From Clostridia bacterium (lineage in GTDB: Bacteria > Bacillota > Clostridia > UMGS1883 > UMGS1540), in assembly GCA_045578225.1 (NCBI GenBank), contig JAZNJV010000022.1:1-43404 (forward strand): a DNA stretch of 43,404 bases. Reading direction: 5' to 3'. The position numbers were made by a program, and so were the translations under genes. The notes beneath the pieces were generated by a model. It saw only the letters and a list, made by a program, of their open reading frames with translations, searched no databases and was not told the DNA's origin. Shown here piece after piece: positions 5,372 through 22,029 of this stretch (positions are counted from its first letter, which is position 1; every line of letters starts with the position of its first letter).

Positions 5372-5488
5372 TTTTCCACACTGTTTTCCCGCGGTTTTTC
5401 ACTTTTCCACCGAGTTATCCACATAAAACAAGCTATTTTTGCCCGTTTTTTTAAGTTTTCCACATAGGCACTTTTTAAGTTATCCTAC
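5372..5488 (+). promoter_or_regulatory. Upstream oriC DnaA-box cluster
   Basis: Boxes are TTTTCCACA 5372-5380, TTTTCCACC 5403-5411, TTATCCACA (perfect) 5415-5423, TTTTCCACA 5456-5464 and TTATCCTAC 5480-5488. All share one orientation and lie between the promoter and the dnaA start. Confidence 0.8.
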
Positions 5489-5537
5489 TTTTGCACGGGC
5501 AATTTCAATATACTTTTCGAAAGGAATTTTACGCGTA

Positions 5538-6851
5538 ATGAACGGTGAACTTTTAAACATCTGGAATCACGTTCTGCCCCTCATTGAGGAAGAAGTTACA
5601 CCTGTTGGCTATAAGACCTGGATACTATCGATTTCCCCTCAAAATTTAGAAAACGGCTTTCTACACGTTTCCGTGCCGAACGATGTGAATAAGAACATGG
5701 TAGACCATCGGTATAAAGAGCTTATCCAAAACGCTTTTTATGAAGTTTGCGGCAATCGCTGCACGCTTGTAGTGCACATCGGCACGGAGGAACCGCAAGA
5801 AGAAAAGAAAGAGCCGCGCGCCGCGCGCAATCTCGGCATGCCGCTCAATCCCAAATATACGTTTGACAGCTTCGTGGTCGGCGGCTCAAACCGCTTTGCC
5901 CATGCGGCGTCCCTCGCTGTTGCCGAAACACCCGCGAGAACGTATAACCCCCTCTTTCTCTACGGCGGTGTAGGGCTTGGTAAAACGCACCTTCTCCACG
6001 CCATCGGCAATTTCATTATTGAAAATAACAGCGATATGAAGGTTATGTACATTTCTGCTGAAACCTTCACAAATGAGCTTATCAATTCCATTAAAGATTC
6101 GAAGAATGATGAATTTCGCGAAAAATACCGCTCTGTGGACGTTTTAATGGTCGATGATATTCAGTTCATCGCAGGCAAAAAAGTCACAGAGGAAGAGTTT
6201 TTCCATACGTTTAACACGCTGTATGATGCAAACAAGCAGATTATTATCACGAGTGACCGCCCGCCGAAGGAAATTAAAACCCTCGAGGAACGGCTTCGTT
6301 CCCGCTTTGAATGGGGTATTATCGGCGATTTATATGCACCGGACTATGAGACGCGCTTCGCAATTCTCAGAAAAAAGGCACAGCTTGAAAATATCACCAT
6401 CGGCGATGAAATTTTAGAGCTGATTGCCGATAAAATTACCTCGAACATTCGCGAGCTTGAAGGCGTTTTCAATCGCGTTATCGCCTATCGCGGCCTTATC
6501 AACAGCGAAATTACGATTGATGTCGCACTTGACGCGATGAAGAGCTACCATGCCACCGGCGGCCCGCGTGCCACGGCGGACGAAATTGTGGAAGCTTGCG
6601 TAAAATTCTATCATGTGAAAAAAGAAGATATTATGAGTGCAAAGCGCACAAAGCCGATTGCAAGGGCAAGGCAGGTTGCGATGTATTTAATGCGTGAAAT
6701 ACTCGGTCTTTCGAATTTAAAGATTGCCAAGTATTTTGAAAAGCACCATACCACGATTATGTACGGCATTGAAGAAGTAGAAAAAATAATCAGTGAGGAC
6801 CCGTCTTTCCAAATGGAAATTTCCACACTGAAAAAGGATATCACGGAATAG
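5538..6851 (+). CDS. dnaA: Chromosomal replication initiator DnaA
   Basis: Start set at ATG 5538 (MNGELLNIWNHVL...). Walker A GGVGLGKTHL, Walker B VLMVDDIQF and a C-terminal DNA-binding domain (...HHTTIMYG...) are present. The longer ORF from 5439 runs through the DnaA boxes. Confidence 0.95.
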   Translation: MNGELLNIWNHVLPLIEEEVTPVGYKTWILSISPQNLENGFLHVSVPNDVNKNMVDHRYKELIQNAFYEVCGNRCTLVVHIGTEEPQEEKKEPRAARNLGMPLNPKYTFDSFVVGGSNRFAHAASLAVAETPARTYNPLFLYGGVGLGKTHLLHAIGNFIIENNSDMKVMYISAETFTNELINSIKDSKNDEFREKYRSVDVLMVDDIQFIAGKKVTEEEFFHTFNTLYDANKQIIITSDRPPKEIKTLEERLRSRFEWGIIGDLYAPDYETRFAILRKKAQLENITIGDEILELIADKITSNIRELEGVFNRVIAYRGLINSEITIDVALDAMKSYHATGGPRATADEIVEACVKFYHVKKEDIMSAKRTKPIARARQVAMYLMREILGLSNLKIAKYFEKHHTTIMYGIEEVEKIISEDPSFQMEISTLKKDITE

Positions 6852-6903
6852 TTTTCCACACCCCGTTTTGCCTGTTTTATCGGGCGTTTTCGGCTTTTCC
6901 ACC
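6852..6903 (+). promoter_or_regulatory. Downstream oriC DnaA boxes (dnaA-dnaN spacer)
   Basis: TTTTCCACA at 6852-6860 and TTTTCCACC at 6895-6903. Confidence 0.65.
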
Positions 6904-6914
6904 GTATCCGCATA

Positions 6915-6952
6915 CTCTACTATGATTACTATATTTTAATTATATATATATG
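6915..6952. other. AT-rich DNA unwinding element with candidate DnaA-trios
   Basis: The sequence is ctctactatgattactat followed by attttaattatatatatat. On the bottom strand 6917-6931 reads TAG TAA TCA TAG TAG. A GC-richer spacer (gtatccgc) separates it from the last DnaA box. Confidence 0.55.
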
Positions 6953-6983
6953 CGTTTTCGAGAAAACGAAGGAGGATGTACGC

Positions 6984-8099
6984 ATGATTTTTTCCTGTGA
7001 AAAACAAACGCTTTCGGAAGCGGTTTCCGTTGTAATGAAAGCCGCCGGCACAAATCCCGCCCTTCCCGTTTTGGAAGGTATTTTACTCAGTACAGATGCA
7101 GATAGTCTGATTTTAACCGGCTCAAATCTTGAAATGGGCATTGAATGCCGCGTGCCGGCCGATATAAAAGAAGACGGTGCCATCGTCTCCGGCGATGTAC
7201 GCGTTTTCTCGGAAGTCATTCGTAAGCTCCCTTCGGGTGCTGCCGATATTACGGTACAGGAAAATTTTTCCATGACCGTACAAAACGGTAAATCCGTTTA
7301 TAACATTTTAGGAATGAATCCCGAAGAGTTTCCGGACCTTCCTGTGGTACTGGAAGACTCGGGCATCACACTCCCTGCCGAGGTACTGAAAAAGATGATT
7401 CGCCAGACGGTATATGCCGCGGCCCAGAAAAATGAAAGACCGCAGCTGACGGGTGTATATTTTGAAATTGAGCCTACTGTTTTCCATATGGTGGCGCTCG
7501 ACGGCTTCCGTATGGCCATTCATAACGAGCCGCTTTCAGAAAACCCCGATGAAGAGCCGTACAGCTTCATTGTGCCCGCGAGAACGCTTCTCGAGCTTTC
7601 GCGCATTTTGCCCGATGATGATACGCCTGTTCTCATTACCGCAAGCACAAAGCATGTTCTCTTTACATTTAAGAATATTCGCCTCGTTTCGAGACTTTTG
7701 TCGGGCGAATATTTCCAGTATAAACAGATTATACCCACAGATTTTAAAATTCAAACCACACTTCCGCTTCGCGATATTTTAACGTGTGTAGAACGTGCGG
7801 ACCCGATTGTTTCGACAGATGTATACAAAAACCCTGTTGTAATGACGCTTTCGGGCGATACCCTCGCGATTGACTGTGTCACCGCGGTAGGCAAAGCACA
7901 TGACGTAATTGAAATTCCTGACTGCGGCAGCGAAATTCGCATCGGCTTTAACCAAAGATATTTACACGATGCCCTTTCCGCTTGTGACAGCGAGGCGATT
8001 ATTATGGAATTTAACGGCAGCCGAAACCCCTGTATTATACGGCCTTCTGAAGGGGATTCGTTCCTCTTTATGGTTTTGCCTGTCCGTATCAGCGAATAA
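6984..8099 (+). CDS. dnaN: DNA polymerase III beta sliding clamp
   Basis: 371 aa with a strong RBS (GAAGGAGG). The position after dnaA is conserved and the sequence shows family-typical similarity. Confidence 0.93.
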   Translation: MIFSCEKQTLSEAVSVVMKAAGTNPALPVLEGILLSTDADSLILTGSNLEMGIECRVPADIKEDGAIVSGDVRVFSEVIRKLPSGAADITVQENFSMTVQNGKSVYNILGMNPEEFPDLPVVLEDSGITLPAEVLKKMIRQTVYAAAQKNERPQLTGVYFEIEPTVFHMVALDGFRMAIHNEPLSENPDEEPYSFIVPARTLLELSRILPDDDTPVLITASTKHVLFTFKNIRLVSRLLSGEYFQYKQIIPTDFKIQTTLPLRDILTCVERADPIVSTDVYKNPVVMTLSGDTLAIDCVTAVGKAHDVIEIPDCGSEIRIGFNQRYLHDALSACDSEAIIMEFNGSRNPCIIRPSEGDSFLFMVLPVRISE

Positions 8100-8111
8100 A
8101 AGGAGAAAAAA

Positions 8112-8324
8112 ATGCAGGAAGAAACCATCGTCCTTCGCGGCGAGTATATAAAGCTTGATCAGGCCTTAAAATTTGCCCTCGGCATGGGTGGGGGCGAGGC
8201 GAAGGAGTATATTGTATCGGGCGCCGTGCTTGTGAACGGAGAAGTGGAAACAAGGCGCGGCAAAAAGCTTCGCGGCGGCGATATTGTGCTTACGGACGAA
8301 GTAAAAATCACCATTTTGGAATAG
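8112..8324 (+). CDS. yaaA: S4-domain RNA-binding protein YaaA/RlbA-like
   Basis: 70 aa with the pattern IKLDQALKF...VNGEVETRRGKKLRGGDIV. The position between dnaN and recF is conserved. Confidence 0.85.
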   Translation: MQEETIVLRGEYIKLDQALKFALGMGGGEAKEYIVSGAVLVNGEVETRRGKKLRGGDIVLTDEVKITILE

Positions 8325-8333
8325 GAAAAAAGC

Positions 8334-9425
8334 ATGTTTGTAAAAAGCCTTTCTCTTCGTGATTTCAGAAATTATACGGAAGCGGAAGTGCAGTTTTCGC
8401 CAAAGTGTAACATCATTTACGGCGAAAATGCACACGGCAAAACCAATCTTTTGGAGGCGCTTTGGCTCTTTACGGCCGGTAAAAGCTTTCGCACCGCGCA
8501 AGATAGCGACATGATTCGTTTTTCCGCAGAGGAAGCACGGGTTAAAACAGAGTTTTCTGCATTTGGAAGAGAAAATACGGCAGAAATTACGCTTTCGCAA
8601 GGCAAACGAAAGCTGTTGCGCCTTGGCGGCGCACCGCTTTCGAAAACGAGTGAAATCCTCGGCCAGTTTCCCGCGGTAATCTTCAGCCCCGATGAGCTTC
8701 ATATCATCACCGGTGCGCCCGAGGTGCGCCGGCGGTTTATGGACAGCGCAATTTCCGCGGCCCGGCCGCTTTACTATAGCGCGCTTCACACGTATCTAAG
8801 AACATGGAAGCAGAAAAACGCGCTTCTTAAAAATATGCCGAAGAAGGAAGACCTTGCCATCTGGAATGAGAGGCTTTCGGAATGCGGCGCGCGCGTTATG
8901 CAGTATCGAAATGCATTTTTTGAAGAGCTTTCTCCCCATGCCGCACGCATCCATCGCATGGTGGCAGGGAAGGAGGAAGCACTTTCCGTTTCCTATGCGC
9001 CGAGTGTAGCCGTAAAAGAAACAGAAGAGGCGCAAAAAGAATTTTTATATACCCAGCTTATGAAGAAAGCTGACGCGGAGATCGGTGCGGGCCTATCGCT
9101 CCTTGGACCGCATCGTGACGAAATCCGCTTTTTGATTGACGGAAAAGACGCCCGTGCCTTTGCTTCCCAAGGGCAAATGCGCACGGCGGCTGTTTCCGTA
9201 AAAATCGCACAGGGTGTGCTTCTCGAAGAACAGACGGGCGAAGCACCGCTCGTACTGCTAGACGATATTTTGGGTGAGCTTGACAGCATGCGCCGCGCGC
9301 TCCTCCTTCGCAGTCTTTCCAAAAATCAGGTTCTATTAACGTGTACGGAAAAGAATGCAGTAAAAATAGAGGGCGAAGTGCTTTATATCGAAGTGAAGGA
9401 GGGTTCTCTTTGTACGTCCATATAG
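8334..9425 (+). CDS. recF: DNA replication/repair protein RecF
   Basis: 363 aa with Walker A GENAHGKTNLLEAL, the signature SQGQMRT and Walker B LVLLDDILGELD. Confidence 0.93.
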   Translation: MFVKSLSLRDFRNYTEAEVQFSPKCNIIYGENAHGKTNLLEALWLFTAGKSFRTAQDSDMIRFSAEEARVKTEFSAFGRENTAEITLSQGKRKLLRLGGAPLSKTSEILGQFPAVIFSPDELHIITGAPEVRRRFMDSAISAARPLYYSALHTYLRTWKQKNALLKNMPKKEDLAIWNERLSECGARVMQYRNAFFEELSPHAARIHRMVAGKEEALSVSYAPSVAVKETEEAQKEFLYTQLMKKADAEIGAGLSLLGPHRDEIRFLIDGKDARAFASQGQMRTAAVSVKIAQGVLLEEQTGEAPLVLLDDILGELDSMRRALLLRSLSKNQVLLTCTEKNAVKIEGEVLYIEVKEGSLCTSI

Positions 9426-9673
9426 GCGGAGACTATGCCCTGCCTCTTTCAGAAATTGTAGGCATTATGGATATTGAAAATACCAGCACGTCTTTTGTAA
9501 CGCGTGAATTTTTGCGCAAAAAGGAACAAGAGGGCAAGGTAATTACCACCACCTTAGATCTTCCAAAATCCTTTGTCGTTACAAAAACGAATGTGTATAT
9601 AACCCCTGTCACGGCGGCCACACTTGAAAAACGGTGTAAGATGTGGGAAAGACGTGCAGGAAGAAAGGAATAA
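9410..9673 (+). CDS. remB: DUF370 / RemB (YaaB)-like small protein
   Basis: TTG start at 9410, 7 nt after GGAGG. The sequence LYVHIGGDY...IVGIMD...[23 protein letters not shown] fits the RemA/RemB family. The recF-gyrB position is conserved. Confidence 0.7.
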
Positions 9674-9677
9674 AGCT

Positions 9678-11582
9678 ATGCAGGAACAAATCGAAAAATA
9701 TGACGGCAGTCAAATTCAAGTTCTGGAAGGACTGGAAGCGGTACGAAAACGTCCCGGTATGTACATCGGCTCGACCTCGTCGATGGGTCTTCACCATCTC
9801 GTATATGAGATTGTGGATAACTCGATAGACGAAGCGCTCGCCGGCTTTTGTACCCATATCGAAATTACGATTGAGGCGGATAATTCCATCACCGTAACCG
9901 ATAACGGCCGCGGTATTCCCGTAAGCATTCAGCCGCAGACGGGTCTTCCGGCTGTAGAAGTTGTTTTCACCGTTTTGCACGCCGGCGGTAAGTTTGGCGG
10001 CGGCGGATACAAGGTTTCGGGCGGTCTTCACGGCGTAGGTGCCTCGGTTGTAAACGCGCTTTCCGAAAGCCTTGAGGTAAACGTATATACCGACGGGGAG
10101 GAATACCACCAGGCGTATGCGAGAGGCGCGGTGACCGCACCTTTAGAAAAGCTCGGCAAAACAGAAAAGCGCGGCACACGCGTGCATTTTAAGCCGGACC
10201 CCGAAATTTTTGAGGACCTTATCTATGACTACGAGGTGCTCCTTCGCCGCATGCGCGAGCAGGCTTTCTTAAACGGCGGCGTGAAAATCACGCTCGAAGA
10301 TAAGCGCGAAGAAGGGCGCCGCGATGTGCTTCTGTATGAAGGCGGTATTCGCCAGTTTGTAGAGCATCTGAATAAAAATAAAACGCCGCTTCACGAAAAC
10401 GTCATTTACATCGAAGCCGATGAAGAAGTGAGAAGCGCGCAGATTGCACTGCAGTACACTGATAGCTACGCAGAAACCGTAATAAGCTTTGCAAACGATA
10501 TTAAAACCACCGAAGGCGGTATGCATGAAACAGGCTTCAGAGCCGGCCTTACCAAGGTTTTAAATGACTATGCAAGAAAAATTAAAGTCTTAAAGGATTC
10601 CGATGCAAACCTCTCGGGTGAAGACGTTCGCGAGGGCGTTACGGCCATTATCAGCGTAAAGCTGCAGGAAGCGCAGTTTGAAGGGCAGACGAAAACGAAG
10701 CTCGGCAACAGCGAAATGCGAACGCTTGTAGAAAGACTTATTAACGAAAAGCTTGCAACCTTCCTCGAAGAAAACCCGACCGTGGGGCGCGTGATTATCG
10801 AAAAGGCACTCGCTTCCTCAAGAGCGAGAGAAGCCGCGCGCCGTGCCCGCGATAATGAAAGAAAGAAATCCGGTCTTGAAAGCCTTTCCCTTCCGGGAAA
10901 ACTTGCCGACTGCTCCTCCCGCGATAATACATTCACAGAAGTCTACATCGTTGAGGGTGATAGTGCCGGCGGCTCCGCAAAGCAAGGGCGTGACCGTAAA
11001 TTCCAAGCCATTTTGCCGCTTTGGGGTAAGATGCTGAACGTTGAAAAAAGCCGCATTGATAAAGTAATCGGCAACGATAAGCTCACGCCTGTCATCACCG
11101 CCATCGGTGCAGGCATCGGCGATGACTTTAACATTGAAAAGGTGCGCTACGGCAAAATTATTATCATGGCCGATGCTGACGTGGACGGCTCGCACATCCG
11201 TACGCTTCTTTTAACCTTCTTCTTCCGCTTTATGCGGCCGCTTATTGATAACGGCAGAATTTATCTCGCCCAGCCGCCGCTTTACAAGGTGTTTAAGGGC
11301 AAGAAGGAAAAATACGCATATAATGACGAAGAACTCGCACTGGCGCTTCAGGAAATCGGCTCGGACGCTACCGTGCAGCGCTACAAGGGTCTTGGTGAAA
11401 TGAACGCCGAGCAGCTTTGGGAAACAACGATGAATCCCGAAACGAGAACGCTTGTAAAGGTAACGCTCGAAGACGCCGTGGCCGCAGACGAAATTTTCAC
11501 CATCTTGATGGGTGATAAGGTAGAGCCGCGCCGCGATTACATTATCGAACACGCCAGAAGCGTTCGCAATCTCGATATTTAA
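9678..11582 (+). CDS. gyrB: DNA gyrase subunit B
   Basis: Start at ATG 9678 ([31 protein letters not shown]). GHKL motifs, Toprim EGDSAGG and the [10 protein letters not shown] motif are present. Confidence 0.95.
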
Positions 11583-11596
11583 GGAGGGAATAAAAA

Positions 11597-14056
11597 ATGT
11601 TTAATACAGAAAATGAAAAAATTATTCCCGTCGAGATTAGTCGGGAGATGAAAACCGCGTATATTGACTACGCGATGAGTGTTATTATCGGCCGCGCACT
11701 TCCTGATGTGCGCGACGGTTTAAAACCCGTACACCGCCGTATTCTTTACACAATGAATGAAGACGGCATCACGGCCGACAAAGCGTATCGTAAGTGCGCC
11801 ACCACAGTTGGTGACGTGCTCGGTCGCTACCATCCGCATGGTGACGCTTCTGTATACGATGCGCTCGTGCGCCTCGCGCAGGACTTCTCGCTTCGCTATG
11901 TCCTCATTGACGGACAGGGTAACTTCGGTTCTGTGGACGGAGACCCCCCTGCTGCATACCGTTATACGGAATCGAGAATGTCGCGCCTTGCCCACGAAAT
12001 GGTGGCAGACATTGAAAAAGAAACTGTAGACTTTACGCCGAACTTCGACGAACGTCTCAAAGAGCCTGTGGTGCTTCCGTCGCGCTTCCCGAACCTTCTT
12101 GTAAACGGTTCTTCGGGTATCGCCGTCGGTATGGCCACAAATATTCCGCCGCATAACCTCGGCGAGGTGATTGACGCGATAAACGCCATGCTGGATGACC
12201 CCGAAATTTCCATTGAGGAAATTATGGAATATATCAAGGGGCCTGACTTTCCCACCGCAGGGTTAATCCTTGGCCGAAGCGGCATTCGCAGCATGTATAC
12301 TACAGGCCGCGGCCACATCATCATGCGCGCAAGAGCGGAAATTGAGGAAAAGAACGGCCGAGAAAGAATTGTCGTTACAGAAATTCCGTATCAGGTCAAT
12401 AAAGCGCGCCTTATCCAGAAAATTGCAGAGCTTGTAAAGGATAAACGCATTGAAGGCATCTCCGACATTCGCGATGAGAGTGACAGAGAGGGTATGAGCA
12501 TTGTGATTGAGCTTCGCCGCGAGGCCAATGCGAATGTAGTCCTCAATCAGCTTTACAAAAATACACAAATGCAGGAAACCTTCGGCGCCATTATGCTTGC
12601 GATTGTAGACGGGCAGCCGCAAATCCTGAACATTAAAGAAATGCTCTGGCATTACATTGTGTTCCAGGAAGAGGTTATCCGCCGCCGCACCATTTTCGAT
12701 AAGAAAAAGGCAGAGGCAAGAGCGCACATTTTGGAAGGTCTTCGCGTTGCGCTGGACCATATCGACGAAATTATCCGCATAATCCGCGAAAGCTATAATG
12801 ACGCAAAAATACGTCTTATGGAAGCCTTTGGTCTTTCTGATGTGCAGGCACAGGCCATTCTCGACATGCGCCTCGCGAGACTGCAGGGACTTGAGCGCGA
12901 GAAGATTGAAGCCGAATACAAAGACCTTATGGAAAAAATCGCGTACTACACCGAGGTTCTTGCCAATGAATCGATGGTGCGCGATATCATAAAAGAAGAG
13001 CTCGGCGTTATCCGCACGAAGTACGGCGACGAGCGCCGCACCGAAATCACCGCAATGGTTGGCGACATTGAGGATGAGGATATGATTGACGAAGAGGAAT
13101 GCGTATTTACGCTTACGCACTTCGGCTACATTAAGCGTATCCCCGCCTCCACCTACAGAAGCCAGCGCCGCGGCGGCCGCGGCATTTCGGGCCTTTCTAC
13201 CCGCGAGGAGGACTTTGTAGAAACGCTCTTCACCGCCTCCACACATGCAAACATTCTGTTCTTTACAAATCGCGGCAGAATGTATCATATTAAGGGGTAT
13301 CAAATTCCCGAGGCAGGCAGACAGGCGAAGGGTACAGCCATTGTAAACCTTCTGCCGCTCGCGCCCGAGGAAAAGATTGCCACGATGCTCGCCGTACGCC
13401 AGTTTGAAGAGGATAGCGCGCTCATTATGGCCACCCGCATGGGTACCATTAAAAAGACGATGCTCTCTGAATTTAACACGGCACGCCGCGGCGGTCTTAA
13501 CGCCATCGGTCTTAACGAAGGGGACGATTTAATTGCCGTACGCCTTGTAAGCCCCGAGGATAACGTCCTCATCGGCACGCATGATGGTATGGCCATCCGC
13601 TTTATGGAAGGCGATGTACGCCCGATGGGCAGAACGGCACACGGCGTACGCGCGATAAAGCTTCGCGAGGGCGACTATGTCATCGGCATGACGTGTGCAA
13701 GAGAAGAGTCCGAGCTTTTGGTGGTTACCGAAGGCGGCTACGGCAAGCGCACAACGCTTGATGCGTACAAAATCCAGTCGCGCGGCGGCATTGGTATCCG
13801 CACGTATAAGATTACGGAGGCGACGGGCAGCGTCGTCGGCATCAGCACCGTTACGGACGGCGAGGATATCATGATGATTACAAGCGAAGGCGTTATTATC
13901 CGCCAGGCCGCTTCGGGCGTATCGAGCATCGGCCGAAACACGCAGGGCGTTCGCCTTATTCGCATGGAGTACGATGTCCGCGTTGTGTCCATTGCCCTGA
14001 CGGAGCACGAAGAAGACGAAGAGCCTGCCGAGGAGCAGGAAACAGCGGAAGAATAA
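11597..14056 (+). CDS. gyrA: DNA gyrase subunit A
   Basis: 819 aa with [12 protein letters not shown], the active-site region AAYRYTESR, beta-pinwheel repeats and an acidic tail. Confidence 0.95.
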
Positions 14057-14060
14057 TAAG

Positions 14061-14090
14061 AAAATGGGGCGAAATATTCGCCCCATTTTT
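14061..14090 (+). terminator. Intrinsic terminator after gyrA
   Basis: The stem atggggcgaa / ttcgccccat is followed by TTTT. Confidence 0.75.
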
Positions 14091-14112
14091 GTCTCTTTGT
14101 TAGGGGGTTTTT

Positions 14113-15087
14113 ATGAAAGGCAAGAAACTGGTAACAATCGGCGGCGGCACGGGCATGTCCACGATGCTCCGCGGCCTTAAGAAATACACAGAAAACATCA
14201 CTGCCGTTGTCGCGGTGACGGATGACGGCGGCGGCAGCGGCCGCCTTCGGGAGGACCTCGGAATCCTTCCTCCCGGTGACATTCGAAACTGTCTTTTAGC
14301 CCTTGCGGATGCCGAGCCTTCGATGGAAGCGGTTTTTTCGCACCGCTTTTCAAGAGGCACGCTTTCGGGGCAAAGTGTAGGAAACCTCATTATTGCCGCA
14401 ATGAACGAAATGTACGGCGATATGGAAAAAGCCATCGGGCGCCTTGGCGAGGTCTTGGCAATTTCCGGCCGCGTTTTGCCGGTTACGACGGAAAACGTCC
14501 ATCTGGCCGCCACACTTTCCGACGGGGCGGTCATCTGCGGCGAATCGCGAATCGGGTACGCCAGAAGGGCGTATAATTCCCCCATCGAAAAAGTGAGCCT
14601 TGTGCCGCACGGCGCCCGCGCGACAGAGGCGGTGCTTTCGGCGATAGACGAGGCCGAGGCCATACTTCTCGGCCCGGGGAGTCTGTATACGAGCGTAATT
14701 CCAAACCTTTTGGTGGAAGGGATAAGCGAAGCGCTAAAAAAGGCGCGCGCGCCTAAAATTTACATATGTAACGTGATGGAACAGCCGGGCGAAACGGAAG
14801 GGTACACGGCATATAGGCACGTGGAGGCCATTTTGGCGCACGGCGGCACCGTGGAATACGCGGTTGTCAATACCGCGCCGCTTTCTGCGGAAATTATGGA
14901 AAAGTATAAGGAAGACGGCGTGGGGCCCGTAGCCTTTGACGAAGCGCGCTTTCGTGAGCGGGGCATCGGTCTTATCAAGGCGCCGCTTTTAGAGGGGGCG
15001 GGTACGCTTGCACGCCATAATCCCGACCGCCTTGCCGAATGTCTTTTAAATGCGATTTCCGCAATCGAAAAAGGGATTGCGTTTTAG
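14113..15087 (+). CDS. yvcK: YvcK/CofD-like gluconeogenesis (cell-shape) factor, UPF0052 family
   Basis: 324 aa with VTIGGGTGMSTMLRGLK, VVAVTDDGGGSGRLR, GDIRNCL and GPGSLYTSVIPNLL. Confidence 0.88.
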   Translation: MKGKKLVTIGGGTGMSTMLRGLKKYTENITAVVAVTDDGGGSGRLREDLGILPPGDIRNCLLALADAEPSMEAVFSHRFSRGTLSGQSVGNLIIAAMNEMYGDMEKAIGRLGEVLAISGRVLPVTTENVHLAATLSDGAVICGESRIGYARRAYNSPIEKVSLVPHGARATEAVLSAIDEAEAILLGPGSLYTSVIPNLLVEGISEALKKARAPKIYICNVMEQPGETEGYTAYRHVEAILAHGGTVEYAVVNTAPLSAEIMEKYKEDGVGPVAFDEARFRERGIGLIKAPLLEGAGTLARHNPDRLAECLLNAISAIEKGIAF

Positions 15088-15102
15088 AATATCTCTTGCC
15101 GC

Positions 15103-15157
15103 GTTATTCGCTTTAAAATATTTTAAAGCGAATAACTTTATATTTAAAGCGAATAAC
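15103..15157. promoter_or_regulatory. Operator-like array: 34-bp perfect palindrome plus a third half-site
   Basis: gttattcgctttaaaat|attttaaagcgaataac (15103-15136) is a perfect inverted repeat. TTTAAAGCGAATAAC recurs at 15143-15157 and ends 2 nt before the -35 hexamer. Confidence 0.6.
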
Positions 15158-15159
15158 TA

Positions 15160-15188
15160 TTGACTTTTTGGGTATGATGTTATAAAAT
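15160..15188 (+). promoter_or_regulatory. Near-consensus sigma-A promoter of the island gene
   Basis: TTGACT, a 17-nt spacer, then TAAAAT. It lies 33 nt upstream of the ATG at 15221. Confidence 0.6.
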
Positions 15189-15220
15189 GTACATACAATA
15201 GGAGAGAAAGAGGTGTTACA

Positions 15221-16249
15221 ATGCGGTTCCATGATGAAAAAAAGAGAAGCATTATGCTGTATCTCCTGGAAAAGATTGAACAGGAAGTGGAAAATCCCTC
15301 TCAGATTGTGGCGGAGGCGTTTGGTATCAACCGAAACACCGTACATTCTTACATTAACCAGCTTAGCGCCGAAAACAAAATACGAAGAGAAAAACGCGGA
15401 AAATATGTATTGGTGGAGGACTCTTTTGTATATAGCTTTTTACGGCGGCGCGAGGAAATAAAGAATGAAACGCAGATATATGAAAAGAGTCTTAAAAAGC
15501 ATATCGAAGCGTTGCCGCAGAACGTGCAAGAAATATGGGAATATGCGTTTAGCGAGATGGTGAATAACGTCATTGACCATTCCGGTGCCCAAACCCTATT
15601 CGTTTGGATAAAGCAAAATTATTTGAAAACTTCCGTTTTTATAGGTGACGACGGTATCGGAATTTTTGAAAAAATTAAAAAGTATTTCGATTTTCCGTCC
15701 CTGGACGTTGCCATTTGCGAACTTTTTAAGGGGAAACTCACAACTGACCGTGAAAACCATTCAGGCGAAGGGATTTTCTTCAGTTCAAAGCTCATGGATG
15801 AGTTTGCCATTTTCTCCAGCGATAAAATTTTTACGGCAGACAAATTTGCCCCCGGAAATATACAAAACGTTTCGGAAAAGGCTGAAAAAGGGACGCTTGT
15901 TTTCATGGCGCTTTCAAACTATACACATAAAAAAAGCAAAGAAGTATTTGATAAATATGCGGATGCAGACGGCGGTTTTTCGAAAACCATCCTGCCGCTT
16001 AGAAATATTTTTGATGCTTCTCCCGTTTCCAGATCGCAGGCGAAGAGAGTGCTGACGAGTCTGGATAAATTCGAGGAAATTGTACTGGATTTTGCAGGCG
16101 TTCCATGGATGGGGCAAGGCTTTGCACATCAGATTTTTGTACTTTTCAAAAAACAGAAGCCACATATTCGGATTATCCCCATAAATATGAATGAGGATGT
16201 AACCAAAATGTATAATCATGTTATAAATACAAAAGAGGACGCAGAGTAA
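15221..16249 (+). CDS. Winged-HTH + GHKL (histidine-kinase-like) ATPase + STAS-like (DUF4325-type) fusion protein, function unknown
   Basis: 342 aa with RBS AGAGGTG. The N-terminal HTH includes GINRNTVHSYINQL. Bergerat-fold motifs are EMVNNVIDHS (N box), DDGIGIF (G1) and GEGIFF (G2). The C-terminus SRSQAKRVL...IVLDFAGVPWMGQGFAHQIF looks DUF4325/STAS-like. The coding sequence is clearly AT-rich. Confidence 0.7.
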   Translation: MRFHDEKKRSIMLYLLEKIEQEVENPSQIVAEAFGINRNTVHSYINQLSAENKIRREKRGKYVLVEDSFVYSFLRRREEIKNETQIYEKSLKKHIEALPQNVQEIWEYAFSEMVNNVIDHSGAQTLFVWIKQNYLKTSVFIGDDGIGIFEKIKKYFDFPSLDVAICELFKGKLTTDRENHSGEGIFFSSKLMDEFAIFSSDKIFTADKFAPGNIQNVSEKAEKGTLVFMALSNYTHKKSKEVFDKYADADGGFSKTILPLRNIFDASPVSRSQAKRVLTSLDKFEEIVLDFAGVPWMGQGFAHQIFVLFKKQKPHIRIIPINMNEDVTKMYNHVINTKEDAE

Positions 16250-16252
16250 GCG

Positions 16253-16280
16253 AACCCCCGAAAAAGTTCGGGGGTTTTCT
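16253..16280 (+). terminator. Intrinsic terminator of the island gene
   Basis: aacccccgaa / aaag / ttcgggggtt gives a 10-bp stem with a 4-nt loop, followed by TTCT. Confidence 0.7.
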
Positions 16281-16281
16281 A

Positions 16282-16310
16282 TTGCTTTTTTTGTGCAGGT
16301 ATGGTAAAAT
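16282..16310 (+). promoter_or_regulatory. Promoter of the DUF3798-pgeF-SBP-DUF1015-whiA operon
   Basis: TTGCTT, a 17-nt spacer, then TGgTAAAAT (extended -10). Confidence 0.55.
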
Positions 16311-16386: not shown

Positions 16387-17487
16387 ATGCGAAAAAGAAT
16401 ATTTTGTATGCTTCTGGCAGTGCTTTTTATACTGCCTGCAGGCTGTAAAAACAAAGGAAATACGGGCGGTGAGGATGTTTCCTATAAAATCGCCGTGGTG
16501 ACGGGAAGCGAAAAAATGGGCGAGGCGATTTATGCCGCCCGAAAGCTTTCGGAAAATGCAGAAATCATAACGCGCACGTATTCGGACAGTTTGTCGAGCG
16601 AGGAAACGGTTTCTATTTGTACGAAGCTTTCGGAAGACCCGCTTGTGCGTGCGATTGTGTTCGTCCGCGCCATCTCGGGGATTGACGAGGCGGCCAAAAA
16701 GGTAAAAGAAGCAAGACCCGATATTTTGTTTATCGCAGGCGCCAAAACGGAGGATGCCGGCTTTGTAGCGCAAACGGCCGATATTGTTTTAACGGAAAAT
16801 ACGGTCGAAATGGGCCGTGAAATCGTAAACGAAGCGTACCGCATGGGCGCGAAGAAATTTATCCATTATACCTTTGCGCGCCATCTACTCCGCGAGCCTG
16901 TGCTTCGCCGCCGCGAGGTAATGGTGCAAAGATGCGAAGAACTCGGCATAAGCTTTATGGATATCACAACGCCTGACCCGCAGAACGCGGAAGGGGGCGT
17001 AGAAGAAGCGAAAACGTTTATCCGCGAGGATGTTCCGGAGCAGGTGGGAAACTACGGGGCAAACACCGCTTTTTATGCGACGGATTGCACCATCGCCGCA
17101 GAGCTTATTAAGACCGTTATGGAATGTGGGGCACTTTATCCCCAGCCGTGCTGTCCTTCGCCGTTCCACGGCTTTACGGAGGCACTCGGGGTTTCTGCCG
17201 GTGCCTATGATGAACCCGAGCGCGTTCTTTCCGAGGTGGCACAGGGCATCACTCCGTACGGCAACACCGGCCACATGGCCACATGGCCCGTATCGGCTGA
17301 AATTTTAATGGTGGAAGTAGGCGTTTCCTACGCCAGAGCGTATGCCGAAGGCGAAATCGGCAAAGAACTCGAAAAAGAAAAGCTTCTTTCGATTTTTGCC
17401 GAAAAATCGGGCGGTCGCGCCACGCTTGCAGAGATGGCGCACGCGAAAAACTGCTTCCTCTTCCTGTGCGAGCCGTATATGCTCTAA
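16387..17487 (+). CDS. Lipoprotein, periplasmic-binding-protein-like (DUF3798-type)
   Basis: Start at ATG 16387 (MRKRIFCMLLAVLFILPAGC; lipobox LPAGC). Later motifs RPDILFIAG, GAKKFIHYTFARH and PQPCCPSPFHGF match my recollection of DUF3798 proteins. Confidence 0.65.
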   Translation: MRKRIFCMLLAVLFILPAGCKNKGNTGGEDVSYKIAVVTGSEKMGEAIYAARKLSENAEIITRTYSDSLSSEETVSICTKLSEDPLVRAIVFVRAISGIDEAAKKVKEARPDILFIAGAKTEDAGFVAQTADIVLTENTVEMGREIVNEAYRMGAKKFIHYTFARHLLREPVLRRREVMVQRCEELGISFMDITTPDPQNAEGGVEEAKTFIREDVPEQVGNYGANTAFYATDCTIAAELIKTVMECGALYPQPCCPSPFHGFTEALGVSAGAYDEPERVLSEVAQGITPYGNTGHMATWPVSAEILMVEVGVSYARAYAEGEIGKELEKEKLLSIFAEKSGGRATLAEMAHAKNCFLFLCEPYML

Positions 17488-21135: not shown

Positions 21136-22029
21136 ATGTCATTTGCATCGGATATTAAAACAGAGCTGCTCGAAGCCGAGTTCGGGAAGCCGTGCTGCAT
21201 ACGGGCCGAGCTTTGCGCCCTCGTATGCTTTTCAGGCGCGGTGCTTCCGCCCTACCGCGTTCGCATTTCTACGGAAAACGCGGCCGTGGCGCGGCGGGGA
21301 TATTCCCTCATAAAAGAATATACGGGCATTTCGGGTGAGATTGTCACGCGGAAGGTGCGCGGCAAAAGCATGTATACCATTGAAATCGAAAAGGAGGAGG
21401 ACGGCCTTCACCTTTTATCGGAGCTTGGTCTTCTTTCGAGAAACGGCATTTCATTTCGCGCAAGCGAGACGGAGGAGGCATGCTGCCGAAGAGCCTTTCT
21501 TCGCGGCGCGTTCCTTGGCGGCGGCACCGTGGCAAACCCCGAAAAGGAATACCATATGGAAATCACAACGCCAAGGAAAGGCCTTTCGGAAGACGTGGTT
21601 TCGATGTTTTCGTCCTTTGGCCTTGCGGCCCGCACGTGCCTTCGAAAGACAAATTACGTGGTCTATTTTAAAAGCAGCGAGGAAATCGGCGATGCGTTAA
21701 ATATTATCGGCGCGCCGATGGCGTATATGGAATTTACATCCGTTCGTATTTTGAAGGAGCGGCGAAACCATATAAACCGCCGTGTGAATTGCGATTCGGC
21801 AAACCTCGACAAAACGATAGACGCAGGGCAGGCGCAGCTTGCGGCCATCCGCCGCCTTTCCGAGTGCGGAAGGCTCGCGTCACTCCCCGATTCTCTTCGC
21901 GAGGCCGCCGAGGCACGCCTCGCAAATCCCGAGGCTACGCTTTCCGAGCTTGCCGCGCTTTTAAAAATCAGCAAATCGGGCGCGGCCCATCGCATGCGAA
22001 AGCTACTTGAAATTTCCAAAACGCTTTAA
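21136..22029 (+). CDS. whiA: DNA-binding sporulation/cell-division regulator WhiA
   Basis: 297 aa with SFASDIKTEL...CCIRAEL, LAGLIDADG-like repeats and a C-terminal HTH (LSELAALLKISKSGAAHRMRKL). Confidence 0.9.
   Translation: MSFASDIKTELLEAEFGKPCCIRAELCALVCFSGAVLPPYRVRISTENAAVARRGYSLIKEYTGISGEIVTRKVRGKSMYTIEIEKEEDGLHLLSELGLLSRNGISFRASETEEACCRRAFLRGAFLGGGTVANPEKEYHMEITTPRKGLSEDVVSMFSSFGLAARTCLRKTNYVVYFKSSEEIGDALNIIGAPMAYMEFTSVRILKERRNHINRRVNCDSANLDKTIDAGQAQLAAIRRLSECGRLASLPDSLREAAEARLANPEATLSELAALLKISKSGAAHRMRKLLEISKTL

Follow-up and report, generated by a model that had tools for sequence, protein, structure and literature searches.

The 43,404-nucleotide stretch of Clostridia bacterium contig JAZNJV010000022.1 analysed here (hereafter the window) contains, directly downstream of yvcK, a solitary gene that we call gene X. 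Its 342-amino-acid product joins a winged helix-turn-helix (wHTH) domain, a GHKL ATPase domain and a STAS-like DUF4325 domain in a single chain. We conclude that X is probably a self-contained, autoregulated, moron-like accessory cassette, and a one-polypeptide relative of the CapK/CapS and VapK/VapS switches. GHKL-STAS partner switching is otherwise familiar as the classic two-protein logic of sporulation and stress sigma-factor control.

Gene X occupies a discrete, low-GC transcription unit

The unit extends over approximately 1.2 kb (positions 15103-16277), between the yvcK stop codon (15087) and the next gene. Operator repeats, a promoter, a single open reading frame and a terminator, which together made up the self-contained unit of the original prediction, could each be located within these limits (Table 1), such that the one gene is enclosed by a promoter and a terminator of its own. 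The perfect 34-bp palindrome (a 17+17 inverted repeat) with which the unit begins would be expected by chance only about 2.5e-6 times in 43 kb (43404 x 4^-17). As RNA this palindrome folds with a predicted energy of -17.9 kcal/mol (z = -5.2) and the terminator with -19.4 kcal/mol (z = -3.8); an Rfam search of the unit returned nothing credible. The palindrome could also terminate transcription of yvcK, after which no other terminator is present. That it is merely the yvcK terminator was considered and rejected, given that other cassettes keep the palindrome behind a separate upstream terminator.

The composition of the unit sets it apart from its surroundings. Gene X has a GC content of 0.400 and the whole unit one of 0.391, compared with 0.52-0.53 for the rest of the window and 0.55-0.58 for the yvcK region, and X ranks lowest in GC among the 34 genes of the window (z = -3.8 for GC and -3.5 for GC3, the GC content of third codon positions). 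The direction of the predicted contrast was correct; the 37% and 62% first quoted were counts from single lines of sequence, and the real difference is somewhat smaller.

Table 1. Features of the gene X unit in the window, genomic contexts of X, and sites carrying a full operator module without X
Feature	Position	Strand	Description
Operator palindrome	15103..15136	+	Half-sites A (GTTATTCG, 15103-15110) and B (CGAATAAC, 15129-15136), 18 nt apart
Third half-site C (TTTAAAGCGAATAAC)	15143..15157	+	100% direct repeat of B; 21-bp phasing; stops 2 nt before the -35 hexamer
Sigma-70-type promoter, TTGACT-17-TAAAAT	15160..15188	+	Consensus scan, 10/12 matches
Gene X, 342 aa	15221..16249	+	wHTH ~5-75, GHKL ~100-250, DUF4325 STAS-like ~255-337 (domain limits approximate)
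Intrinsic terminator	16252..16277	+	11-bp stem, 6 GC pairs; T-rich tail 16276-16294
X context, window			gyrA-yvcK / X / DUF3798
X context, L001 and L029			rplM-rpsI / X
X context, L002			addA-like helicase / X / rho; GidB-family gene ~4 kb away
X context, L008			PPDK / X / era
X context, L030			Two genes from dnaA
X context, L032			HMGL-like / X / MqsA-like HTH
Chromosomal solo sites			L047, L048, L049, L070, L076, L082, L084, L114
Phage-contig solo entries			L036=L044, L045=L046

A wHTH head, a SpoIIAB-like ATPase and a STAS-like tail in one chain

The three-module architecture originally read from the sequence can be regarded as settled, because family-level searches and fold searches agree on it. 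The C-terminal tail matches Pfam DUF4325 (PF14213) over residues 273-327 with 47.7 bits, against a gathering cut-off of 23 (E = 1.2e-12). Among 132 family representatives with 31-50% identity to X, DUF4325 was detected in all 132, HATPase_c in 99 and HATPase_c_2 in 97, and many matched wHTH models of the MarR, HTH_24 or HTH_11 type. A full-length AlphaFold 2 model with a mean predicted local distance difference test score (pLDDT) of 78.9 shows a wHTH at residues 5-75 followed by an alpha/beta domain. In keeping with the predicted SpoIIAB-type GHKL domain, the best Foldseek matches of this model in the Protein Data Bank (PDB) are to SpoIIAB (1til_E, E = 2.6e-6; 1tid_A, template modelling (TM) score 0.78; SpoIIAB range 0.72-0.78), RsbW (6m36, TM 0.82), UsfX and the catalytic domain of DesK. 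The 93 C-terminal residues, modelled alone with a diverse alignment, gave a pLDDT of 92.3, and nearly all of their top 50 Foldseek matches were STAS domains, including SLC26/SulP STAS, RsbS (6jhk) and SpoIIAA (1tid_B, TM 0.65), at TMq 0.60-0.65, a probability of ~1.0 and modest E-values of 0.02-0.1. The predicted STAS-like character of the DUF4325 tail is thus borne out by both the Pfam match and the fold.

Sequence-based and viral resources gave sparser results. A full-length sequence search against the PDB found weak DesK GHKL matches only, and a fold search of BFVD yielded nothing at E<=0.001 and no full-length relative. Two families of unknown function, phrog_3364 and phrog_20761, match X over residues 25-235 (E = 9.4e-11) and 270-335 (E = 1.4e-4), respectively, which suggests that in phages the HTH-GHKL and DUF4325 parts also exist as separate proteins. 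In a Francisella prophage, a 293-amino-acid hypothetical protein is encoded beside a 112-amino-acid DUF4325 protein, with the cI repressor on one side and the integrase on the other (PMC7924643).

A conserved ATP site and a candidate loss of the STAS phospho-serine

The hallmarks of GHKL (Bergerat-fold) ATPases are all present in X, namely the N box with its Asn residues (E112/N115/N116/H120), the DxGxG motif of G1 (D143-G145-G147) and the glycine-rich lid and G2 (K170-G171-K172-x-T174 ... H180-x-G182-x-G184). Across the 132 representatives, N115, N116, H120, D143, G145, G147, G171, T174, H180 and G182 are invariant and E112 and G184 nearly so; because this holds at 31-50% identity, the ATP site is under selection. 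Within the STAS-like domain the invariant positions are R271, S272 and F301.

The best PDB sequence match of the C-terminal profile is 'Escherichia VapS' (9z7o_A), a weak match (E = 0.11) that is in register over 60 residues. The alignment sets LDFkgVeeiGQaF of the family opposite LDFSNVKMFASPF of VapS, and thereby Ser48 of VapS opposite Gln299 of X (VapS numbering after subtraction of an 18-residue tag from the chain numbering). Column 299 is Gln in 124 of the 132 representatives, and the column that follows is Ala or Gly. On this weak, in-register match, the canonical STAS phospho-serine appears to be replaced by Gln299, such that X would lack the phosphorylatable Ser or Thr found at the N-terminus of helix alpha-2 in STAS anti-sigma antagonists such as SpoIIAA, RsbV, CapS and VapS. 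The earlier by-eye reading, in which GQGF stood where SpoIIAA has DSSG, is consistent with this alignment, within the limits set by its E-value and by a non-significant comparison with SpoIIAA that is taken up below.

A conserved operator array argues for autoregulation

Seven independently located cassettes share a single layout, GTTATTCG-N18-CGAATAAC-N13-CGAATAAC-2 nt-TTGAC, and the DNA similarity between cassettes begins exactly at the position equivalent to 15103 and stops at the end of the coding sequence. In 36 distinct promoter-linked modules from metagenomes, half-sites A and B were 18 nt apart in every case under a search pattern that allowed 16-20 nt; B and C were separated by 13 nt in 29 modules and by 14 nt in 7, and C lay 2 nt from the -35 in 35 of the 36. 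The half-site consensus of these modules is TTAAA(A/G)CGAATAAC. The -35 TTGAC directly after C is conserved in homologous cassettes, some of which carry a fourth CGAATAA 21 bp farther on, within the promoter spacer.

Distant lineages have the recognition helix ISLNTVYRY instead of INRNTVHSY, and in these the -35, -10 and ribosome-binding site of the gene are overlaid by repeats of another sequence. The repeats are of the AGTTAAAAA type in phage-borne copies, and CAGTTnCAAATAA at 22-bp phasing is also found. One distant member (L169, 4902-4982) has four direct CAGTTnCAAATAAnA repeats at exact 22-bp phasing across the -35 and -10, in an iteron-like layout. This co-variation of helix and repeats between lineages is our main argument that the wHTH binds the repeats, and that gene X would thereby repress itself. 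No further operator was found in the 43-kb window.

A large family of solitary genes in unrelated contexts

The family to which X belongs is very large, comprising 6,671 clusters at 90% identity (E<=1e-3, among 7,637 word-sharing candidates). At 50% identity it forms 2,795 clusters at E<=1e-3, 1,810 at 1e-10 and 807 at 1e-30, and nearly all of the best 150 of these are full length (330-365 aa). Annotations taken over from the sources go no further than 'DUF4325 domain-containing protein' or 'anti-sigma regulatory factor / predicted transcriptional regulator'. X is solitary at every locus inspected, i.e. in five close-subfamily neighbourhoods outside the window and at three more distant members, and its contexts are unrelated to one another (Table 1). 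Its GC content always lies 6-22 points under that of the carrier (0.29-0.32 where the host has 0.35-0.39, and 0.27-0.32 on viral contigs of 0.35-0.53). Moreover, the X proteins of the window and the L030 host share 63% identity, compared with 46% for DnaA, 37% for DnaN and 35% for RecF of the same two hosts. Low GC, unrelated contexts, a degree of conservation exceeding that of DnaA, DnaN and RecF, presence/absence at other loci and the occurrence of relatives on viral contigs together support the foreign or mobile origin proposed in the original prediction. None of the outcomes that the original prediction named as refuting it was seen: profile matches to the expected domains exist, the position of the gene is variable and no housekeeping operon contains it.

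The same observations bear on the alternative that X is an ordinary one-component transcription factor of the host, controlling a dispersed regulon in response to ATP/ADP or a metabolite signal, with its low GC and variable position being incidental. Like many host regulators, X is solitary, wHTH-based and, by our reading, autoregulated; its neighbours are housekeeping genes, and the window copy is intact and partly ameliorated to host GC (GC3 of 0.43, versus 0.24-0.28 in three close relatives). However, the 43-kb window offers no second operator for such a regulon, the operator has been conserved along with the protein in hosts that differ widely in GC, and X outstrips DnaA, DnaN and RecF in conservation. 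Precise presence or absence at otherwise near-identical loci and the occurrence of family members within phage genomes also speak against a host regulator, an explanation that we hold to be decidedly unlikely.

One further open reading frame deserves mention. At the end of contig L167 (1-2055; P0208), a 684-aa reading frame combines faint RHS/YD-repeat matches with a full X-like module (residues 330-662), and is flanked by PSCyt1/PSCyt2/PSD1 and DUF1501 genes. It may represent X-like C-terminal cargo of a polymorphic toxin, or an artefact of gene calling or assembly, and we set it aside.

Gain and loss of the cassette at repeat modules

A scan of metagenome contigs for the full operator module returned at least 120 stretches, from which 80 loci were listed and combined with 12 viral-contig loci. 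Among the listed loci, at least 32 modules have X downstream, at least 25 lie directly downstream of X in the same orientation, at least 26 are 'solo' modules with X on neither side, and at least 23 lack X downstream and have too little upstream sequence to be classified, with 2 more unplaced; these class counts include repeat samplings of one site. On inspection by eye, a full module is present in 12 of the 26 solo entries among the matches listed, eight of them chromosomal and four in phage contigs (Table 1). The other 14 were set aside as CGAATAA-type tandem repeats. Short CGAATAA/CGAATAAC-like tandem arrays, which we treated as noise in the form of compositional matches, were seen on unrelated metagenome contigs (L061, L062, L065, L066, L069, L078, L096, L124 and others).

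Direct repeats of the module bracket X at L094 (103 nt, 88% identical), L030 (58 nt, 86%) and L092 (63 nt, 83%). The left flank of the X-less locus L114 aligns with that of L094 as far as the end of module 1 (98%), and on the right the alignment resumes at module 2; L070 shows the same pattern against L092, and L084 against L091 is similar with a less clean upstream side. There is thus precise presence/absence polymorphism of a segment consisting of promoter, X and one module, at chromosomal loci other than that of the window. At the latter, a YvcK scan of genome contigs found only relatives of at most 53% identity, and exact-protein look-ups of YvcK and X gave no match. Because the bracketing repeats have diverged while their half-sites have been kept, we read the second module as functional, namely as a second binding cluster that serves looping or insulation. 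Recombination between the two modules would then occasionally delete X and leave a solo module behind; active site-specific insertion of the cassette is possible.

The bracketing repeats also raise the question of a minimal mobile or replicative element, in which the module would be an att-like, iteron-like or recombination site and X a DNA-handling ATPase. Module repeats of 58-103 nt flank X at many loci, solo modules mark empty sites that include phage genomes, and iteron replicons combine an inverted repeat with phased direct repeats in the way that the module does. The wHTH region, furthermore, weakly matches replication-initiator PHROGs (E = 0.02-0.1). Nevertheless, X carries no recombinase, nuclease, HUH or Rep catalytic domain, and a single module is all that the window copy and several others possess. 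Identity between the flanking repeats is no higher than 83-88%, with the half-sites preserved, which fits selection for protein binding better than fresh duplication, and direct-repeat recombination explains the solo modules without active mobility. An element of this kind seems to us highly improbable.

Two of these loci show additional features. In L030 the second module (7089-7146) follows right after the X terminator and stops ~20 nt short of the start codon of a gene for a 4HBT thioesterase, with no -35 behind it; it may be a roadblock, a looping site or a means of controlling the neighbouring gene. In a gut lineage (L094, 1881-2069 and 4942-5018; L114; L049, 2654-2731) the cassette is located between tRNA-Tyr/tRNA-Thr and tRNA-Arg. 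The similarity of the X-less L114 stops ~25 nt into the 3' end of tRNA-Arg, which suggests that an element integrated at tRNA-Arg and may thereby explain the presence of this region in 'viral' contigs.

Relatives of X at moron positions in phage contigs

Twenty IMG/VR contigs encode family members, at 43-58% identity to X. In L178, L187 and L190, X is positioned between a phrog_36/phrog_248 transcriptional regulator/activator and terS (or an HNH gene plus terS), and we take this regulator to be a late-gene regulator because it directly precedes the packaging genes. Elsewhere X lies two genes upstream of terS (L184) or adjoins endolysin and holin (L183). Regulator-terS and lysis-gene flanks are classic moron positions, and each of the phage copies has its own promoter and terminator. 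A near-identical terminator, GCACCC-TYCG-GGGTGCTTTT, is found downstream of X in L178 (~8075-8100), L187 (~8060-8085), L185 and L190 amid unrelated flanks; to judge from these sequences, the terminator probably travels with the cassette.

Solo modules of the window's GTTATTCG type, with palindrome and third half-site, are likewise present inside phage genomes. One is located directly after a phrog_291 endolysin gene (L045, 9314-9368) and another separates tail genes (for a minor tail protein and a Dit-like protein) from a Gp80-like gene (L036, 5931-5985). Lost cassettes may have left them as scars, or they may be decoys or else targets for host-encoded X. Some of the 'viral' contigs with the closest lineages (L173, L192) have the appearance of host DNA next to a tRNA integration hot spot, and phage carriage of the window's own subfamily is indicated by the solo modules only. 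In sum, X displays the features of a moron or mobile cassette, i.e. a promoter and terminator of its own, atypical composition, patchy presence and phage carriage, in combination with a window copy that lies outside a prophage. This pattern of carriage suggests that X serves phage-host or prophage biology and not housekeeping, and a role in phage-host conflict is plausible.

Such a role could take the form of an anti-phage or superinfection-immunity gene, with X sensing infection, through single-stranded DNA (ssDNA) as CapK/VapK do or through a phage protein, and acting via its SpoIIAB-like domain, for example by sequestering a sigma-like late activator of the phage or by phosphorylating a target of host or phage origin. 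Several observations are in accord with this idea: the GHKL domain is structurally closest to anti-sigma factors, three phage lineages have X directly after the phrog_36/phrog_248 regulator and before terS, and an AT-rich, patchily distributed gene with its own promoter and terminator is typical of prophage morons. Related parts also serve immunity in CapKS and VapKSC (PMC13373217), and DUF4325 genes have been found coupled with the PIN.4 family of VapC (PMC5499597). On the other hand, X has neither an effector domain nor a partner gene, its chromosomal neighbours are mostly housekeeping genes and not defence islands, and the late-regulator flank is a general moron hot spot, such that the synteny is perhaps incidental. 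PADLOC-DB v2 (2023, which predates CapKS) returned weak HTH-type matches only (AbiEi 8.5e-4, Csa3, mad1; residues 5-103). In the five close and three distant neighbourhoods inspected, possible toxin-antitoxin (TA) or ATPase-type neighbours were seen at L032 only, with no dedicated defence scan. The defence or addiction module raised in the original prediction therefore stays speculative, and we consider an immunity gene of the kind outlined here unlikely.

Genomic neighbourhood of the window copy

The window covers an origin-proximal region with dnaA, dnaN, recF, gyrB and gyrA and then yvcK (5439-15087), where the gene that we take to be gyrB is so labelled from its position and our own reading. 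The first gene 3' of the unit encodes a DUF3798 lipoprotein (16387-17487), and not, as originally proposed, the start of a whiA-containing operon. It is followed by a Cu-oxidase_4/YfiH-type gene, an SBP_bac_5 gene and a DUF1015 gene, and whiA is found some 5 kb farther along, at 21136-22029. Adjacency of yvcK and whiA is the usual arrangement. Here they are separated by X and four normal-GC genes, and because the latter also intervene, more than the low-GC cassette has broken this adjacency. No sigma factor or PP2C phosphatase gene is present near X in the window.

Comparison with known switches

CapK (HTH-STAS-GHKL) is an ssDNA-activated kinase that phosphorylates the repressor CapS (STAS-wHTH) in the control of immune operons, and VapK/VapS control the VapC toxin in the VapKSC toxin-antitoxin system (Chambers et al., EMBO J 2026, PMC13373217). 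The internal STAS domain of CapK helps to bind ssDNA, and the phospho-acceptor serines are S54 in CapS and S48 in VapS (PMC13373217). X is built from the same kinds of parts as these systems (HTH, SpoIIAB-like GHKL and SpoIIAA-like STAS), and VapS is the best PDB sequence match, albeit a weak one, of its C-terminal domain. Like CapK, X carries STAS and GHKL on the same chain, and like both systems, in which a DNA-binding repressor autoregulates via palindromic sites, it is proposed from its operator sequences to control itself. There are also clear differences. CapK/CapS are two genes followed by a regulated operon, whereas X is a single solitary gene with its own terminator and with unrelated downstream genes at every locus examined. 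The domain order of X is wHTH-GHKL-STAS, the position of CapS S54/VapS S48 is Gln in the alignment, and full-length similarity to CapK/CapS or VapKSC is not detectable. No immune operon adjoins X, and neither VapC nor any other PIN or toxin gene is adjacent in the window or at homologous loci. X thus falls outside CapKS and VapKSC, and by analogy it plausibly works in a similar manner.

The GHKL fold of X is closest to those of SpoIIAB and RsbW, with intact ATP-binding motifs, and its C-terminal domain shares the STAS fold of SpoIIAA; the likeness to anti-sigma kinases of the SpoIIAB/RsbW type is one of modelled fold together with the HATPase_c_2 matches among relatives. Unlike the SpoIIAB/SpoIIAA and RsbW/RsbV pairs, X fuses kinase and antagonist in one chain with a wHTH head, and the canonical Ser appears to be absent. 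It resembles phage morons in its own promoter and terminator, its carrier-unlike composition and the location of its relatives at moron sites, and differs from them in that the window copy resides in the oriC-proximal chromosome and that the cassette has a conserved operator array, often with a second array downstream. The Pfam entry for DUF4325 describes the domain only, whereas X carries a fused wHTH-GHKL region ahead of it.

The original remark that no function is assigned to this architecture accordingly needs qualification. A two-protein system made from the same parts was characterised in 2026 (PMC13373217), and the literature searched contains no paper on the fused wHTH-GHKL-DUF4325 protein, its cassette or the function of the family. 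What is new here is a GHKL-STAS switch that is fused, apparently devoid of the canonical phospho-site and packaged as a mobile, probably autoregulated cassette; the two-protein version was already known.

Proposed mechanism and significance

In the mechanism that we propose for the autoregulated cassette, X would dimerise or oligomerise, and its wHTH domains would bind the phased half-sites, first the inverted A/B pair and then the 21-bp direct repeats running into the -35, and so repress its own promoter. Where, as in many relatives, a second operator module follows the gene directly, X would be expected to occupy that module as well. The GHKL domain is expected to bind ATP, with the tethered STAS-like domain docking onto it as SpoIIAA does on SpoIIAB. 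Since the phospho-acceptor Ser is seemingly replaced by Gln, the STAS-like domain would most likely be a non-phosphorylatable pseudo-substrate or a ligand-sensing partner, for which the internal STAS of CapK provides a precedent. Switching of DNA binding, or of an output through protein-protein contacts, would then depend on the nucleotide state or on a ligand.

A number of points weigh against this proposal. We infer the DNA binding, ATP binding and intramolecular STAS-GHKL contact of X, and a regulator acting on itself alone gives no obvious benefit, so that an output must be missing from the model. In single-sequence Pfam searches, both HATPase_c (E = 3.7e-4; 21.3 versus 26.4) and HTH_45 (E = 3.9e-4) fell below threshold. 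The assignment of Gln299 depends on the weak VapS match, and an hhalign comparison of the C-terminal profile with a SpoIIAA sequence was not significant (probability 0.26), although the register agrees. The original view that a classical phosphorylation switch is unlikely accords with the apparent absence of the canonical Ser, but the invariant R271-S272 could serve as an alternative phospho-acceptor and thereby sustain such a switch. As regards mobility, the window copy has one operator module only and lies outside any recognisable prophage with no mobile-element gene nearby, and its GC3, higher than that of its close relatives, suggests long residence. Finally, the phage link depends on metagenomic viral contigs with members of 43-58% identity, and tblastn against 50,697 GenBank phage records and 72,556 PLSDB plasmids found no homologue.

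A bolder proposal, which we regard as quite improbable, is that X is a single-protein sensor-effector of phage-host conflict, in which the tethered, non-phosphorylatable STAS domain would gate the capture of sigma-like phage late activators by the SpoIIAB-like domain and the modules would act both as operators and as sites of gain and loss. If true, it would constitute a minimal mobile immunity or regulatory cassette of an undescribed kind. More generally, one gene with a ~55-bp operator offers a compact system for studying how a GHKL switch is controlled by a tethered STAS domain in the presumed role of pseudo-substrate, and could also show what prophage-type units do for gut Firmicutes. Members of this very large family are spread among Clostridia chromosomes and phages, and a closely related two-protein logic was tied to immunity in 2026.

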